DNA of 28,840 nt from a virus. Taxonomy: Duplodnaviria; Heunggongvirae; Uroviricota; Caudoviricetes. The notes below the pieces were generated by a model. It was given only the letters and a program-made list of their open reading frames with translations. It was not told the origin of the DNA and made no database searches. The stretch lies in the IMG/VR virus record IMGVR_UViG_2609459848_000003. One strand, given 5' to 3'. Positions 10,636 to 15,894 of the stretch are shown here, piece after piece; position 1 is the first letter of the stretch, and each line of letters begins with the position of its first letter. The translations under genes were made by a program, and so were the position numbers.

Positions 10636-11175
10636 CTACCACCAACTGCTAGCTTTCTTCTCTCTAGCTTTTCCTTCGCTTTGCAGTAAATCTTTACTTC
10701 CTGTAGAAATATTTCTATTTGCATCAGCCTCAGACTGAATTACATCTGTCTTAGCTGCTCTCTCCTTCAACTCCTGCTCTATAAAATCGTTTTCTCGCTG
10801 GACACGAGCCGCTTTTGCTTGCAGTTCGAGTTTCATGCTTTCGAGTTGCAGCTTGCGAAGCTCATCCTCATAAGCTTGATCTCGCTTCTTGTCATTTGCT
10901 AGCTCGGCTTCTCGTTTCGCTCTACGTTCATTTTCTGCAGCAACACGCTGTTTTTCGCGTGCAGCAGCGGCAGATGCTGCTTTTTCTCTTCTAATACGTT
11001 CAGCTTGTGCTTGTTGGCGAATAAGTTCTTTTCTGGCATCCTCAGCTTGCTGCTCTTTAGCTCGCCCTTCATTTTCCGCTTGAGCAATAGCAGCAATTTG
11101 ACTTTGCAACGAGTTAGCCAAGGCAGTGCCTACACTAAACGTAGAAAAGATTAGAAATAAAATAATTTTATTCAT
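10636..11175 (-). CDS. Secreted charged coiled-coil protein (179 aa)
   Basis: N-terminal signal peptide MNKIILFLIFSTFSVGTALA, then a long E/R/K/A/Q-rich predicted helix (TolA domain II-like composition). Stop-to-start distance from the lipoprotein gene is 3 bp. Confidence 0.6.
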   Translation of the reverse strand: MNKIILFLIFSTFSVGTALANSLQSQIAAIAQAENEGRAKEQQAEDARKELIRQQAQAERIRREKAASAAAAREKQRVAAENERRAKREAELANDKKRDQAYEDELRKLQLESMKLELQAKAARVQRENDFIEQELKERAAKTDVIQSEADANRNISTGSKDLLQSEGKAREKKASSWW

Positions 11176-11178
11176 AAA

Positions 11179-11700
11179 TTATTTCTTTTCTGGACAAGTA
11201 GCATTTGGCTGAATTCGAGTTTCATTATCTTTAGTTGAAATAAGCACAGCAAGCCCCGTTGTAAACTGGCATGCTTTACCAACTTGAGTTGAAGTGAACA
11301 CCTTAGTTCCTTCTTTATAAGTCAGTGAAACACCTTCAACAATTGTTTTATCACTAACCAAAGAACCAGCCGCTGCACCAAGAGCCGCACCACCAGTACC
11401 GCCAGCTACAGCACCCAGTGTCGATGTGCCTTTAACATTATAACCGGCAACGCCCCCAGCAACAGCTCCCAGTACCGCACCAAATGTCTGTGCCGCTTCT
11501 TTATTAGCTTTATTATCAACTTTCACTTTAGCTGGAAGCACAGAGATAATATTGACTGTCTTTGTTTCCTGCTTCGAATTCAATTGAGCGGTATCATAAA
11601 CATCGGCAGCATAATCAGCACCGCTAGATTGACACCCAGAAAGAAGAATTGCAGATACAACAAGAGCGCATAAAGTATACTTTTTAGACATAAGAATCAT
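11179..11700 (-). CDS. SlyB/Pcp-family outer-membrane lipoprotein with glycine zipper (173 aa)
   Basis: Lipobox LLSGC after a hydrophobic signal; ADVYDTAQL motif and glycine zipper GAVLGAVAGGVAGYNVKGTSTLGAVAGGTGGAALGAAAG resemble E. coli SlyB as I recall it; downstream GVSLTYKEGTKVF resembles the SlyB beta region. Confidence 0.65.
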   Translation of the reverse strand: MILMSKKYTLCALVVSAILLSGCQSSGADYAADVYDTAQLNSKQETKTVNIISVLPAKVKVDNKANKEAAQTFGAVLGAVAGGVAGYNVKGTSTLGAVAGGTGGAALGAAAGSLVSDKTIVEGVSLTYKEGTKVFTSTQVGKACQFTTGLAVLISTKDNETRIQPNATCPEKK

Positions 11701-11981
11701 CCCAGAAAAACAAAAACCGGCGAGAAGTTACCACGAGAACGGAAAGTAAACAAGAATACTCCCATTGACTTATATCAATTAATCAACTTTTTATAAGCTA
11801 TCCCTAACTTATTGTGTATAGCTGAAAAGTCAGAGACAAGTTCACCATCTGCATTATTTCTTAAGTTAATAGTTTATTGCTAACTTAATTTATGCATCGA
11901 CTATTGATATCCATCTTAAAGTTACAATATCCCTCTGCATTATTTTTCATCACAAATAATATATCTATTGCACGACACTAA

Positions 11982-11998
11982 TCTGCTCTAATAAATTT
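11982..11998. promoter_or_regulatory. C1 repressor operator-like site (Op51-like)
   Basis: TCTGCTCTAATAAATTT matches the remembered P1 C1 operator consensus ATTGCTCTAATAAATTT at 15 of 17 positions; lies in the AT-rich divergent promoter region upstream of c4-icd-ant. Confidence 0.55.
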
Positions 11999-12189
11999 GT
12001 ATTTTTAAGTCGCGAATGCTATCTTTTCGCATCATATTGACCTTTTAATCGTTCAGGCTTATAGTTTCGCCGTCGTAGCAAATTCTGCGACCGGGTTTAG
12101 CAGCCTGAATGATTGTGCGGACAGCCGCAGATATCCGATATTGCGGTATTTTTGTGTCCGTAAAACCGCGTTACGCCCAAATTATGGTG

Positions 12190-12265
12190 GGGCGTGATGG
12201 GGAGGCTTCGGCCTGCTGGTTTCACAATCGCCAGTCTGCTAACCCCGTCACGTCCTGCCACCTGT
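12190..12265 (+). ncRNA. c4: c4-like antisense repressor RNA (structured, tRNA-like)
   Basis: Nested hairpins: GAUGGGG...CCCCGUC outer stem, AGGC-UUCG-GCCU tetraloop hairpin, CUGG-uuucacaaucg-CCAG hairpin. Loop tcacaatc (12222-12229) is exactly complementary to gattgtga (12295-12302) at the icd ribosome-binding site. Ends are approximate. Confidence 0.45.
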
Positions 12266-12312
12266 TTAGCAGCGGGTAGCAGGTTGTTAAACCTGATTGT
12301 GAGGCCGTAACT

Positions 12313-12534
12313 ATGGTTAATGCCAATCCTTGCGCACGCCAAGAATTCATCTGGCGTTTCTATTCCTGCAAAAAACACCACTATCACTTCGTCATCGCAG
12401 CAACAGAAGACGAAGCACGCTCTCAATTGCCTGATGGCCCCTGCATTTTTACTGCCCGTTTTTCAACTAACTCGCGCAATTCACTTAGTTACTGGAACCT
12501 CCCCTTCTCTGCCGACGTTCAGGGGGGTTTATGA
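12313..12534 (+). CDS. icd: Icd-like small protein (73 aa) translationally coupled to ant
   Basis: ATG at 12313 with SD GAGG 8 nt upstream; stop overlaps the ant1 ATG (ATGA at 12531-12534); the 73-codon length matches P1 icd as I recall it. Confidence 0.5.
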   Translation: MVNANPCARQEFIWRFYSCKKHHYHFVIAATEDEARSQLPDGPCIFTARFSTNSRNSLSYWNLPFSADVQGGL

Positions 12535-13565
12535 AAAAACCTCTCGTCACCCGTAATGAAATAGCCGAAGCGATCGCCCTGCATACAACCTGTATGCCGA
12601 CACGGGAGATCCCCGGCGCAATTGCCAACTATTTCATGATAACCAGGCGTTTTTATACCCGAACAGATAAGGCTGTGATCAACAAGCTACTGATAGCCGA
12701 GATCAGGGATTATTTGATTGAACAAGGACGTCTACGTTACGCAACAGTGGCAGCAGAAATAAGAAAGGAGGCACATAGAATGACCGGTAAAAATTTGAAT
12801 ATTGAAAAACCAGCACCTGTTGCTTCAGCTACGCCAGCACCAGCCGTGAATGTCATCCCCAACATCGGAGACACAATCGACAGCCAAACATTGTTGAAGA
12901 TGGTCAATGAGGCACGGAAATTATGTAGCGAAAAACCAGTTCGCAATAATGATTTCATTGCCAGAGTTAAGGATGAACTTGAAGGAGAAACCTACGAAAT
13001 TTTCGTAGGTCAAAAAAACGGCGCAGAAATAGATATTATAACAATGACCTACAAACAAGCCCTGCGAGTTGCCGCGCGCGAGTCAAAAGCGGTCCGCCGT
13101 TCGCTGATCGACAAACTGGAAGAATTGCAGCAGGCAAACTCCCCTACCCCATCGATCCCCCAAACATTACCAGAAGCTCTACGCCTGGCTGCCGAGTTGG
13201 CAGAACAGAAAATGCAGTTGGAACAACAGCTGGTGGCCGCAGCCCCTAAAGTCGATTTTGCCGACCGGGTATCAGCGGCTAATGGAATCCTGATCGGGAA
13301 CTTTGCAAAGGTCGTTGGACTTAAGCAAAACGCCCTTTTCTCATGGTTGCGCCAGAACGGCATTCTCATGGCTTTTGGTGCGCGCAAAAACGTACCGCGC
13401 CAGCAGTACATTAACGCCGGGTATTTCACGGTGAAAGAAGTGGTGCTGGATGATGAAAATGGCTACCAGATACGGCTGACGCCCCAATTAACGGGTAAAG
13501 GCCAGCAGTGGTTAACTCGCAAGCTACTTGATGCTGGTTTGTTAAAACCAGTAGCAATAGGTTAA
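12531..13565 (+). CDS. ant1: Antirepressor Ant1 (344 aa) with C-terminal ANT/KilA-C domain
   Basis: C-terminal LPEALRLAAELAEQK...GKGQQWLTRKLLDAG is a phage antirepressor (ANT) domain; placement downstream of the c4-like RNA and icd. Confidence 0.7.
   Translation: MKKPLVTRNEIAEAIALHTTCMPTREIPGAIANYFMITRRFYTRTDKAVINKLLIAEIRDYLIEQGRLRYATVAAEIRKEAHRMTGKNLNIEKPAPVASATPAPAVNVIPNIGDTIDSQTLLKMVNEARKLCSEKPVRNNDFIARVKDELEGETYEIFVGQKNGAEIDIITMTYKQALRVAARESKAVRRSLIDKLEELQQANSPTPSIPQTLPEALRLAAELAEQKMQLEQQLVAAAPKVDFADRVSAANGILIGNFAKVVGLKQNALFSWLRQNGILMAFGARKNVPRQQYINAGYFTVKEVVLDDENGYQIRLTPQLTGKGQQWLTRKLLDAGLLKPVAIG
12780..13565 (+). CDS. ant2: Antirepressor Ant2, in-frame internal start (262 aa)
   Basis: ATG at 12780 (codon 84 of ant1) preceded by a strong SD AAGGAGG at 8-nt spacing. 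Confidence 0.45.
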   Translation: MTGKNLNIEKPAPVASATPAPAVNVIPNIGDTIDSQTLLKMVNEARKLCSEKPVRNNDFIARVKDELEGETYEIFVGQKNGAEIDIITMTYKQALRVAARESKAVRRSLIDKLEELQQANSPTPSIPQTLPEALRLAAELAEQKMQLEQQLVAAAPKVDFADRVSAANGILIGNFAKVVGLKQNALFSWLRQNGILMAFGARKNVPRQQYINAGYFTVKEVVLDDENGYQIRLTPQLTGKGQQWLTRKLLDAGLLKPVAIG

Positions 13566-13728: not shown

Positions 13729-14529
13729 ATGCAACAAACATTCAATGCGGATATGAATATATCAAACCTTCATCAAAATGTCGATCCTTCAACCACTCTG
13801 CCTGTTATTTGTGGTGTTGAAATTACGACCGACCGCGCTGGCCGTTACAACCTTAATGCTCTACACAGAGCGAGCGGACTCGGTGCCCATAAAGCGCCAG
13901 CTCAATGGCTAAGAACGCTGTCAGCCAAACAGCTCATCGAAGAGCTTGAAAAAGAAACTATGCAGAATTGCATAGTTTCGTTCGAAGGCCGTGGCGGCGG
14001 CACTTTTGCCCATGAATTGCTCGCTGTGGAGTACGCAGGCTGGATTTCTCCCGCGTTTCGGCTGAAGGTAAACCAGACATTTATCGACTATCGAGCTGGA
14101 AGATTACAACCTGCTATTCCGCAGAGTCTCCCTGAAGCTCTCCGTTTGGCTGCCGACCTGGCAGAGCAAAAGCAACGGCTGGAGCAAAAAATGCTTATGG
14201 ATGCACCTAAAGTCGAATTCGCCGAACGCGTTGCTACCGCCAGCGGGGTTCTAATCGGCAACTATGCCAAAGTGCTCGGCCTGGGCCAAAACTATCTCTT
14301 CACCTGGTTGCGTGATAACGGAATTCTGATCGCAACCGGTGAACGCAGGAACGTCCCCAAACAAGAATACATATCCCGTGGGTATTTCACCCTTAAAGAA
14401 ACCGTGATCGATACAAGCAATGGAAGCAGGATTTCTTTCACGACTCGTATAACCGGCAAAGGTCAGCAGTGGCTTATGAAGCGATTGCTTGATGCTGGTG
14501 TGCTGGTGCCTGTCGCGGCGACGCGCTAA
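13729..14529 (+). CDS. kilA: KilA (KilA-N domain plus ANT/KilA-C domain), 266 aa
   Basis: SD GGAGAAAAA before the ATG; C-terminal LPEALRLAADLAEQK...GKGQQWLMKRLLDAG paralogous to the Ant C-terminus; 266 aa followed by repL, as in the P1 lytic replicon. Confidence 0.75.
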   Translation: MQQTFNADMNISNLHQNVDPSTTLPVICGVEITTDRAGRYNLNALHRASGLGAHKAPAQWLRTLSAKQLIEELEKETMQNCIVSFEGRGGGTFAHELLAVEYAGWISPAFRLKVNQTFIDYRAGRLQPAIPQSLPEALRLAADLAEQKQRLEQKMLMDAPKVEFAERVATASGVLIGNYAKVLGLGQNYLFTWLRDNGILIATGERRNVPKQEYISRGYFTLKETVIDTSNGSRISFTTRITGKGQQWLMKRLLDAGVLVPVAATR

Positions 14530-14558: not shown

Positions 14559-15404
14559 ATGCTGGCTAAAGTCACTTTCCTGAGCTGTATAACGATGAGC
14601 GATTTTACTTTTTCTGGCTATGAATTGGCCTGCTTTGTAACACACTCCGGTCTATCCCGTAGCGCCGGGCATATCCTGTCGCAATGTGCAAATCTCGCGG
14701 CAACAACCAGTGAATATTTCATTCACAAGCCTCACCGCCTGATCGCGGCAGAAACTGGTTATAGCCAATCAACCGTCGTTCGTGCATTCCGTGAAGCTGT
14801 AAACAAAGGAATCCTGTCTGTAGAGATTGTTATCGGCGATCACCGTGAACGCCGCGCTAACCTGTACCGGTTTACACCATCCTTTTTGGCCTTCGCACAA
14901 CAAGCTAAAAACGCGCTGACTGAAAGCAAATTAAAGATCTCTTCAGCCGCAACCAAGGTTAAAGCTGTTCTCGCTAAGACATTGGCTTTATTTGATTTTT
15001 TAACCACAGCCCCATATCAAAATGATACCCCCTCCCCCTGTCAGGATGACGTGGCAATAAAGAATAAGAAGTCACAAGTTAAAAAAACAAAAAGATCAGT
15101 TTCCGGCGGTGCCGGAACGACCAGACTCAAAAAATTGACTTCATGGATCGCTGAGGCAAAAGCAAAGGCTGACAATCTGCGGTTATCCAAAAAACGCACT
15201 CAAAAACATGAGTTCAAGCAGAAAGTAGAGGCGGCTGCGCGGAAATATGCTTACCTGAAGAACAAGCGTTCGCCTGATATTGGCGGGATATCAAACTTCG
15301 ATAACCTACCGCATTGCATGACGGTAAACGAAGCTCTTAATGCGGTTTTAGCCAAAAATAAAGATAACGAACAATGGGGTATACCGGCGGGATTCAGAGG
15401 GTGA
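14559..15404 (+). CDS. repL: Lytic replication initiator RepL (281 aa)
   Basis: Position directly after kilA and the 281-aa length match P1 RepL as I recall it; the lytic origin is expected inside this gene. Confidence 0.7.
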   Translation: MLAKVTFLSCITMSDFTFSGYELACFVTHSGLSRSAGHILSQCANLAATTSEYFIHKPHRLIAAETGYSQSTVVRAFREAVNKGILSVEIVIGDHRERRANLYRFTPSFLAFAQQAKNALTESKLKISSAATKVKAVLAKTLALFDFLTTAPYQNDTPSPCQDDVAIKNKKSQVKKTKRSVSGGAGTTRLKKLTSWIAEAKAKADNLRLSKKRTQKHEFKQKVEAAARKYAYLKNKRSPDIGGISNFDNLPHCMTVNEALNAVLAKNKDNEQWGIPAGFRG

Positions 15405-15639
15405 TAGATTGCTCTAATCTGGAGTCACCTGGCGTTTTCAGTATGGATTTTCTTTGGCGCGGTCTGGCCATTAGGGATCATGTTTGCTGCAACATTTCTT
15501 CTGATGTGGATATTCACCCTTCCCGGTGATTTCTATAGAAAAAAAGCCAGACATTGATACAATCGTTGCGGGTGCTTGAGGCTATCTGCTTCAGGCATTA
15601 CCCGAAAAGCAGATAGAAGAAAGCCCCAGATAACATTAA

Positions 15640-15720
15640 GCGTCCTGCAAGACGCTTAACATTAATCTGAGGCAATATCTATGCTTAGCATACGTAGATT
15701 AGCCTCTTACCGACCAAAAG
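15640..15720 (-). ncRNA. sok: Sok-like antisense RNA (approximate position)
   Basis: Inferred from the hok/mok architecture; the leader GGGTGCTTGAGGCT...AGCCTCTTACCG...CAAGGAGAAG resembles the R1 hok mRNA leader from memory. Exact ends not determined. Confidence 0.3.
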
Positions 15721-15887
15721 GTCAAGGAGAAGCAGGCTATGAAGCAGCAAAAAGCGATGTTAATCGCTCTGATCGTCATCTGTTTAACCGTCATTGCGAC
15801 GGCACTGGTAACGAGGAAAGACCTCTGCGAGGTACGAATCCGAACCAGCCAGACGGAGGTCGCTGTCTTCACAGCCTACGAATCTGA
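15681..15887 (+). CDS. mok: Mok (modulator of killing) reading frame overlapping hok
   Basis: 68-aa ORF starting 58 nt upstream of hok and overlapping it in another frame, as in the hok/mok/sok arrangement. Confidence 0.55.
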   Translation: MLSIRRLASYRPKGQGEAGYEAAKSDVNRSDRHLFNRHCDGTGNEERPLRGTNPNQPDGGRCLHSLRI

Positions 15888-15894
15888 AAGGTAA
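15739..15894 (+). CDS. hok: Hok/Gef-family type I toxin (51 aa)
   Basis: Hand translation MKQQKAMLIALIVICLTVIATALVTRKDLCEVRIRTSQTEVAVFTAYESER; SD AAGGAG 9 nt upstream. Close to Gef/HokC and Hok of plasmid R1 ([28 protein letters not shown]). Below the 60-aa cutoff of the ORF track. Confidence 0.85.
   Translation: MKQQKAMLIALIVICLTVIATALVTRKDLCEVRIRTSQTEVAVFTAYESER

Follow-up and report, generated by a model that had tools for sequence, protein, structure and literature searches.

The 28,840-nucleotide stretch of phage DNA analysed here (the window) carries, upstream of icd, an RNA gene that its sequence identifies as the P7-type c4 antisense RNA of the P1/P7 immI region, together with its full set of target sites. 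The element as such is already known. The best explanation for the locus is a secondary-immunity switch (immI) of P7 specificity that belongs to a phage-plasmid of the P1 family; we assign this reading a probability of about 95%. An earlier note on this DNA had proposed a c4-type antisense RNA switch as in P1/P7 immI. Both a match to Rfam family RF01695 above its gathering threshold and an alignment to P7 without a single difference across the RNA bear this out, and the sequence features that the note had named lie where it had placed them or at most two bases away.

The c4 RNA and its fold

The covariance model RF01695 (C4 antisense RNA) matched positions 12180-12265 over its full length (model positions 1-87) with a score of 69.6 bits, compared to a gathering threshold of 45 (E = 7.7e-12). 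The companion model RF03163 (c4-a1b1) matched upstream with 54.6 bits and a threshold of 46.7 (E = 2e-11). The covariance-model search with the C4 family, which the earlier note had suggested as a check, was positive, and the companion model matched as well. Besides these matches, the locus shows the other marks of the c4 family: a three-helix fold, complementarity to the a2/b2 sites, an additional a1/b1 pair and the operon context.

To place the mature RNA, positions of the aligned P7 locus were converted to window positions by adding 10449. The P7 c4 misc_RNA, at 1737-1813 of that locus, thereby coincides with a stretch of the window that is 100% identical to it. Megablast of the region 11950-12560 returned 100% identity to phage phi456 and 99.5% to P7, and RCS47 is likewise 100% identical to the window here. 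In a three-way alignment with P7 and P1, no base of the window differs from P7 over the stretch that begins with a1 and ends at the icd ATG. The functional assignment of c4 is carried over from P1/P7 on the strength of this sequence identity.

Folding of 12180-12265 gave a structure of -45.4 kcal/mol, with identical minimum-free-energy and centroid structures. Shuffled sequences reached on average -28.6 kcal/mol (z = -5.1), and 0 of 200 shuffles were equally stable, so that the region passes the folding check proposed earlier by a wide distance. The 77-nt RNA alone folds at -44.9 kcal/mol. The structure is a three-helix junction and not a cloverleaf. It consists of an 18-bp outer stem (12185-12202 with 12243-12260), a UUCG hairpin (AGGC-UUCG-GCCU, 12203-12214) and a second hairpin (hairpin 3, 12215-12235), whose loop of 9 nt, UUCACAAUC in the minimum-free-energy structure, carries the b' determinant. 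The a' determinant CUGCUAA forms a 7-nt single-stranded junction between this hairpin and the outer stem. Both hairpins described in the earlier note are thus present in the computed fold. Its outer stem, GAUGGGG (12196-12202) with CCCCGUC (12243-12249), is indeed paired but makes up just the inner part of the 18-bp helix. Its description of the fold as tRNA-like holds in the sense of an RNase P substrate and fails for the architecture, which is that of a three-helix junction in which ARAGORN finds no tRNA.

The fold is also supported by covariation. In an alignment of 10 relatives, two of them distant, the 28 base pairs were paired in 99.6% of cases and five pairs showed double, compensatory changes, while controls with a slid register reached just 36-54% pairing. 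The GG at the 5' start, the CCACC tail at the 3' end and the lack of a terminator fit processing of c4 from a longer transcript. A scan for an intrinsic terminator 3' of c4 found none, so c4 does not arise as a primary transcript ended by a terminator.

Table 1. Features of the immI region and of the hok/mok/sok cassette, in window positions
Feature	Position	Strand	Basis
C1 repressor operator Op51 / Oc4 of the c4-icd-ant operon, TCTGCTCTAATAAATTT	11982..11998	+	mapped from P7 protein_bind (P7 locus 1533-1549); P1 equivalent exists
Promoter P51a (P2c4), overlapped by the operator, -10 TATCTT at 12020-12025	11996..12025	+	P1 annotation (P1 locus 1513-1542) via alignment
Promoter P51b (P1c4), TTGACC, 17-nt spacer, TATAGT	12037..12065	+	consensus scan; P1 annotation (P1 locus 1554-1582)
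c4-a1b1 structured leader, two hairpins, the second with a1 in its loop	12059..12111	+	RF03163
a1 target TTAGCAG, complementary to a'	12097..12103	+	'putative a1 target site' in P1 annotation
b1 target GATTGTG, complementary to b'	12111..12117	+	'putative b1 target site' in P1 annotation
Mature c4 antisense RNA, 77 nt, GGUGGGG...CCUGCCACC	12186..12262	+	P7 misc_RNA c4 maps with 100% identity
b' determinant CACAAUC, loop of hairpin 3, P7 allele	12223..12229	+	fold, exact search, alignment
a' determinant CUGCUAA, single-stranded junction, P7 allele	12236..12242	+	fold, exact search, alignment
a2 target TTAGCAG, icd leader	12266..12272	+	target site a2 in P1 annotation
b2 target GATTGTGA (12295-12302) with icd Shine-Dalgarno GAGG (12301-12304)	12295..12304	+	target site b2 in P1 annotation
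icd, 73 aa, start ATG 12313	12313..12534	+	ORF list; NCBIfam phage_ICD_like, 52.7 bits
ant1 anti-repressor, 344 aa, in-frame ant2 start at 12780	12531..13565	+	ORF list; Pfam ANT/KilAC, 107.5 bits; P7 and P1 annotations
sok	15570..15744	+	Rfam match, 114.5 bits
mok-like ORF, 68 aa, overlapping the Hok ORF	15681..15887	+	
Hok/Gef-family ORF, 51 aa	15739..15894	+	

Operon context and target sites

The P1 annotation includes the C1 operator, P2c4, P1c4, a1, b1, c4, a2, b2, icd and ant1/ant2, and each of these maps onto the window (Table 1). The spacer of P51a carries one substitution relative to P7 (G at 12012, as in P1). The consensus scan picked up P51b on its own, matching at 10 of 12 positions. 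The icd-ant context named in the earlier note was recovered: Icd matches P7 Icd at 100% and P1 Icd at 97% identity, the ANT domain is present in ant1/ant2, and the stop codon of icd and the start codon of ant1 share the ATGA at 12531-12534, an overlap needed for translational coupling. The C1 operator, the promoters, the c4-a1b1 motif and the upstream a1/b1 sites are additions to what that note described.

Downstream of ant1, KilA (13729-14529, + strand) shares with Ant1 a C-terminal ANT/KilAC domain (112.2 bits) with near-identical motifs (LPEALRLAA-LAEQK) and has a KilA-N domain in addition. RepL (14559-15404) had no match in Pfam or NCBIfam.

Exact searches reproduced both complementarities of the earlier note. 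The octamer tcacaatc (12222-12229) has its exact reverse complement, gattgtga, at 12295-12302, and ctgctaa (12236-12242) is complementary to ttagcag (12266-12272). The pairing of b' is able to extend over 12220-12230. The note had placed the b' target over the region from the Shine-Dalgarno sequence to the ATG of icd; b2 does overlap GAGG (12301-12304), located 8 nt ahead of the start codon, but does not reach the ATG itself. The second pair of targets lies upstream of c4, where the RF03163 match stops at 12111, the position at which b1 begins, so that b1 directly adjoins the structured leader.

Counts of the two 7-mers over the 28.8-kb window are near chance (5 versus 4.7 expected and 7 versus 3.9 expected), and three copies of each are packed into approximately 210 bp. 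We then scored the geometry of the locus, defined as two 7-mers that share a segment of 77 nt and that each find two or more perfect complements in the flanking sequence. This geometry occurred at one of 28,240 window positions, and that position was the real c4 locus. The complementarity of a' and b' to their targets is not due to chance.

The cognate duplex between the b' loop and the leader was calculated at -11.8 kcal/mol, with 11 pairs and with G.U pairs reaching into the GAGG Shine-Dalgarno sequence. With the P1-allele b' loop on the leader of the window, the duplex reached just -4.9 kcal/mol and was thus about 7 kcal/mol weaker. For the full a' junction, RNAduplex chose an alternative 6-nt site, TAGCAG at 12277-12282 (+ strand). 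Flanked by a2 and b2, this hexamer has the potential to pair with six bases of a P7-type a'. It occurs in the P1 and P7 leaders, and SJ46, D6 and 813R1 have CGCAGG instead. Since several relatives carry CGCAGG, the pairing at TAGCAG is probably fortuitous.

As to the type of specificity, a' reads CUGCUAA, b' reads CACAAUC and the targets read TTAGCAG and GATTGTG. All six sites, i.e. a', b' and the four targets, are the same as in P7 and different from P1. P1 differs at a' and b' with matched changes in its targets, and the element in the window is therefore assigned by its sites to the P7 type and not to the P1 type, which settles the question of specificity that the earlier note had left to an alignment.

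Conservation, allele diversity and alternative readings

Conservation of the complementarity, whose loss would have spoken against the earlier note, was assessed in 19 annotated phage and plasmid loci and in a set of 121 IMG/VR loci; it is kept, with covariation, in both. All four targets are perfect (a1 and a2 equal to the reverse complement of a', b1 and b2 to that of b') in 17 of the 19 annotated loci, among them 673R5, where b1 owes its complementarity to an insertion of 2 nt. Of the remaining two loci, the one from Klebsiella has an ISL3 element in the place of its upstream half, and the other, on a distant contig, mismatches at one base of b1. A search of plasmid records gave 579 matches.

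Pattern searches of IMG/VR with a loop spacer of six N returned 120 loci, and those with a spacer of seven N returned 10 loci. The latter form a more distant subgroup with a loop one base longer and serve as an out-group with the same three-way complementarity. The scored set comprised the 121 loci with complete flanks, representing 71 distinct sequences. Four perfect 7-nt targets were present in 111 of them. The other 10 belong to a subgroup with an 8-nt b' allele, in which b1 stays complementary once the register is moved by one base. Altogether we counted two a' alleles, at least 15 b' alleles and 22 combinations, and the combination found in the window is the commonest (24 of 121). P7 identity, fold, complementarity, covariation and operon context are direct observations of this analysis.

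Across the 121 loci, a1/b1 co-vary with a'/b' as strictly as a2/b2 do, which suggests that the upstream sites are functional. The two modules also reassort independently of each other: JL22 joins a P1-type a to a P7-type b, and pCFSAN058545_02 a P7-type a to a P1-type b. A broader idea would be that a1/b1 are under selection for pairing with c4, e.g. for autoregulation, titration or control of precursor processing, and that reassorting a and b modules constitute a combinatorial immunity code of P1-like phage-plasmids. We put this forward tentatively, as possible though rather unlikely. The mildly new material of this study is comparative only and consists of the a1/b1 covariation and the modular reassortment of a/b alleles; the element itself moves no open question forward. 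Its use lies chiefly in annotation, as it classes the window with the P1-family phage-plasmids whose immI specificity is of the P7 type.

IsrK is an Hfq-binding sRNA of the Salmonella Gifsy prophage. The ECO95 1-6-1 contig carries a distant c4 locus. There, the part upstream of c4 that corresponds to a1b1, at positions 282-361 (approximately 12040-12125 of the window), matched Rfam isrK with 53.8 bits rather than c4-a1b1, a hint that IsrK-type RNAs and c4-a1b1 leaders may be homologous.

The 19 annotated loci also bear on whether c4 is an antisense RNA at all. A 56-aa ORF at 12109-12279 (+ strand) starts with ATG, spans b1 and the whole c4 RNA, and has been annotated as a CDS in phi456 (Orf29), JL22 (gp42), RCS47 ('transcriptional regulator C4') and the old P1 record X15639 ('c4: CDS'), as it would be if c4 encoded a small repressor protein. 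Translation of the homologous stretch in the 19 loci led us to reject a protein-coding c4, as it revealed frameshifts, lost starts and in-frame stops. The frame is shifted by a 1-nt indel in P1, SJ46, p2RM15116 and an E. marmotae plasmid, the start is ATA in 813R1, SJ46, D6 and others, and pCFSAN058545_02 and elppa9 contain in-frame stops. Furthermore, the ORF has no Pfam match, substitutions preserve the RNA pairing instead of the frame, and c4 is entered as an RNA in the reference annotations of P1 and P7. We leave a protein next to no probability, and the ORF is, judged from these alignments, a recurrent mis-annotation drawn over the RNA gene. The CDS placed on top of c4 goes by the name of 'hypothetical protein' or 'C4 transcriptional regulator', and the result flags it as an error. 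Equally negligible is the reading of c4 as a tRNA or a tRNA-derived gene rather than an antisense regulator. It could draw on the long, acceptor-like stem, on the CCACC tail and on a passage of PMC2190699 that lists c4 as an RNase P substrate. However, ARAGORN reported 0 tRNA or tmRNA genes in the window, the three helices include no anticodon arm and no D or T loops, and the best Rfam family is C4; with ARAGORN negative and no cloverleaf, the tRNA reading is excluded.

A reading that stays closer to the RNA itself would have a' and b' pair purely in cis, with a1/b1 or a2/b2 of the primary transcript; the locus would then work like an attenuator or as a switch in processing, and no trans RNA would be involved. 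c4 does share one transcript with all four targets, no terminator separates them, and a1/b1 co-vary as strictly as a2/b2 although they are sites without an assigned function. Such a switch is nevertheless very improbable here: the genetics and biochemistry reported for the identical P7 sequence, in the passages of PMC5320573 and PMC8546580 that deal with c4, describe a processed, trans-acting RNA of 77 nt, and cis pairing alone cannot explain immunity against an incoming phage. Pairing with a1/b1 in cis may occur alongside the trans action. The preferred reading remains a trans-acting c4 antisense RNA of P7 specificity.

Proposed mechanism and comparison with known systems

For trans action, RNase P processing, translational block and coupling we infer the mechanism from published work on P1 and P7. 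The c4-icd-ant1/2 operon would be transcribed from P51a and P51b, beside the C1 operator, and c4 would be excised from that transcript as a 77-nt three-helix RNA with a 5' end made by RNase P. Passages in PMC5320573, citing Hartmann 1995, and in PMC2190699 describe such a cut from the operon transcript to approximately 77 nt with an RNase P 5' end. The RNA is characterised in parts of PMC5320573 and PMC8546580, for the identical P7 sequence, as a trans-acting, processed RNA that confers superinfection immunity. In trans, the junction a' (CUGCUAA) would pair with a2 in the icd leader and the loop b' (CACAAUC) with b2. As the b'-b2 duplex would cover the icd Shine-Dalgarno sequence, icd would not be translated. 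This agrees with the summary of Citron and Schuster 1990/1992 given in a passage of PMC5320573, according to which b' occludes the icd ribosome-binding site and a' adds specificity.

Because ant1 is predicted to be coupled translationally to icd through the ATGA overlap, the anti-repressor Ant would then not be made. Biere, Citron and Schuster reportedly found in 1992 that blocked icd translation also leads to Rho-dependent termination within the untranslated icd, before ant is reached. With Ant absent, C1 repression would be kept, and lysogeny and superinfection immunity would thereby be maintained. The chain from the block of icd translation via the lack of Ant synthesis to sustained C1 repression follows the accounts found in passages of PMC5320573, PMC8198154, PMC8546580 and PMC6906374. 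Homo- versus heteroimmunity would be set by the few bases of a', b' and their targets; four base differences are stated to be enough for P1/P7 heteroimmunity in this literature. The alleles would accordingly predict which relatives are excluded: in the 19-locus alignment, phi456 and P7 share the a'/b' combination of the window, and P1, SJ46 and D6 differ.

Among the known systems, P7 is matched most fully. The P7 RNA (AF503408 misc_RNA 51057-51133, RF01695) is identical to the window over its 77 nt, as are a1, b1, a2, b2 and Icd. The order of the operon and the genes that follow it is common to both (operator, promoters, a1b1, c4, a2b2, icd, ant1/2, kilA, repL), and two point differences, at 12012 and 12067, both fall into the promoter region. 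Ant1 has 348 aa in P7 and 344 aa in the window. The upstream neighbours are shared as well. The P7-type genes upf50.0 and upf50.5, for a signal-peptide protein and a lipoprotein, lie upstream of immI at 10636-11700 (- strand), in place of the superimmunity genes simABC of P1, which are not the upstream neighbours of immI in the window. Since both these neighbours and immI are of the P7 type, the immI neighbourhood as a whole is P7-like. 3' of repL, the window carries a complete hok/mok/sok type I toxin-antitoxin cassette (15570-15894, + strand) at the position taken by rapA/rapB in P7 and by rlfA/rlfB in P1. The same hok/mok/sok arrangement is found in phi456, MH422554 and Ro157c2YLVW. Much of the remaining window is closest to P1, RCS47 and phi456, with about 98% identity. 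By these sequence comparisons the window is a mosaic.

The c4 RNA of P1 (AF234172 misc_RNA 48343-48419) resembles that of the window in length, fold, processing context and operon, and the region is about 93-95.5% identical, the upper value coming from the megablast of 11950-12560. P1 carries the alleles CUGUCAA (a') and CACUAAC (b'), with the targets TTGACAG and GTTAGTG. In the unpaired parts of c4 the two differ at exactly four bases, all within a' and b', and the outer stem shows one change from G-C to G-U. The P1 a1, b1, a2 and b2 sites carry changes that match those of the P1 a' and b' and are compensatory. Over the unpaired parts of c4 and the four target sites, the differences between P1 and the window are solely mutually compensatory ones. 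Other c4 types, from P1-like and D6-like phage-plasmids such as SJ46, D6, JL22, 813R1 and others, have the scaffold and the three-way complementarity in common with the window, while their b' alleles (CGUAAGU, CAUUCGU, CAUGUAC and others) occur together with one or the other of the two a' alleles.
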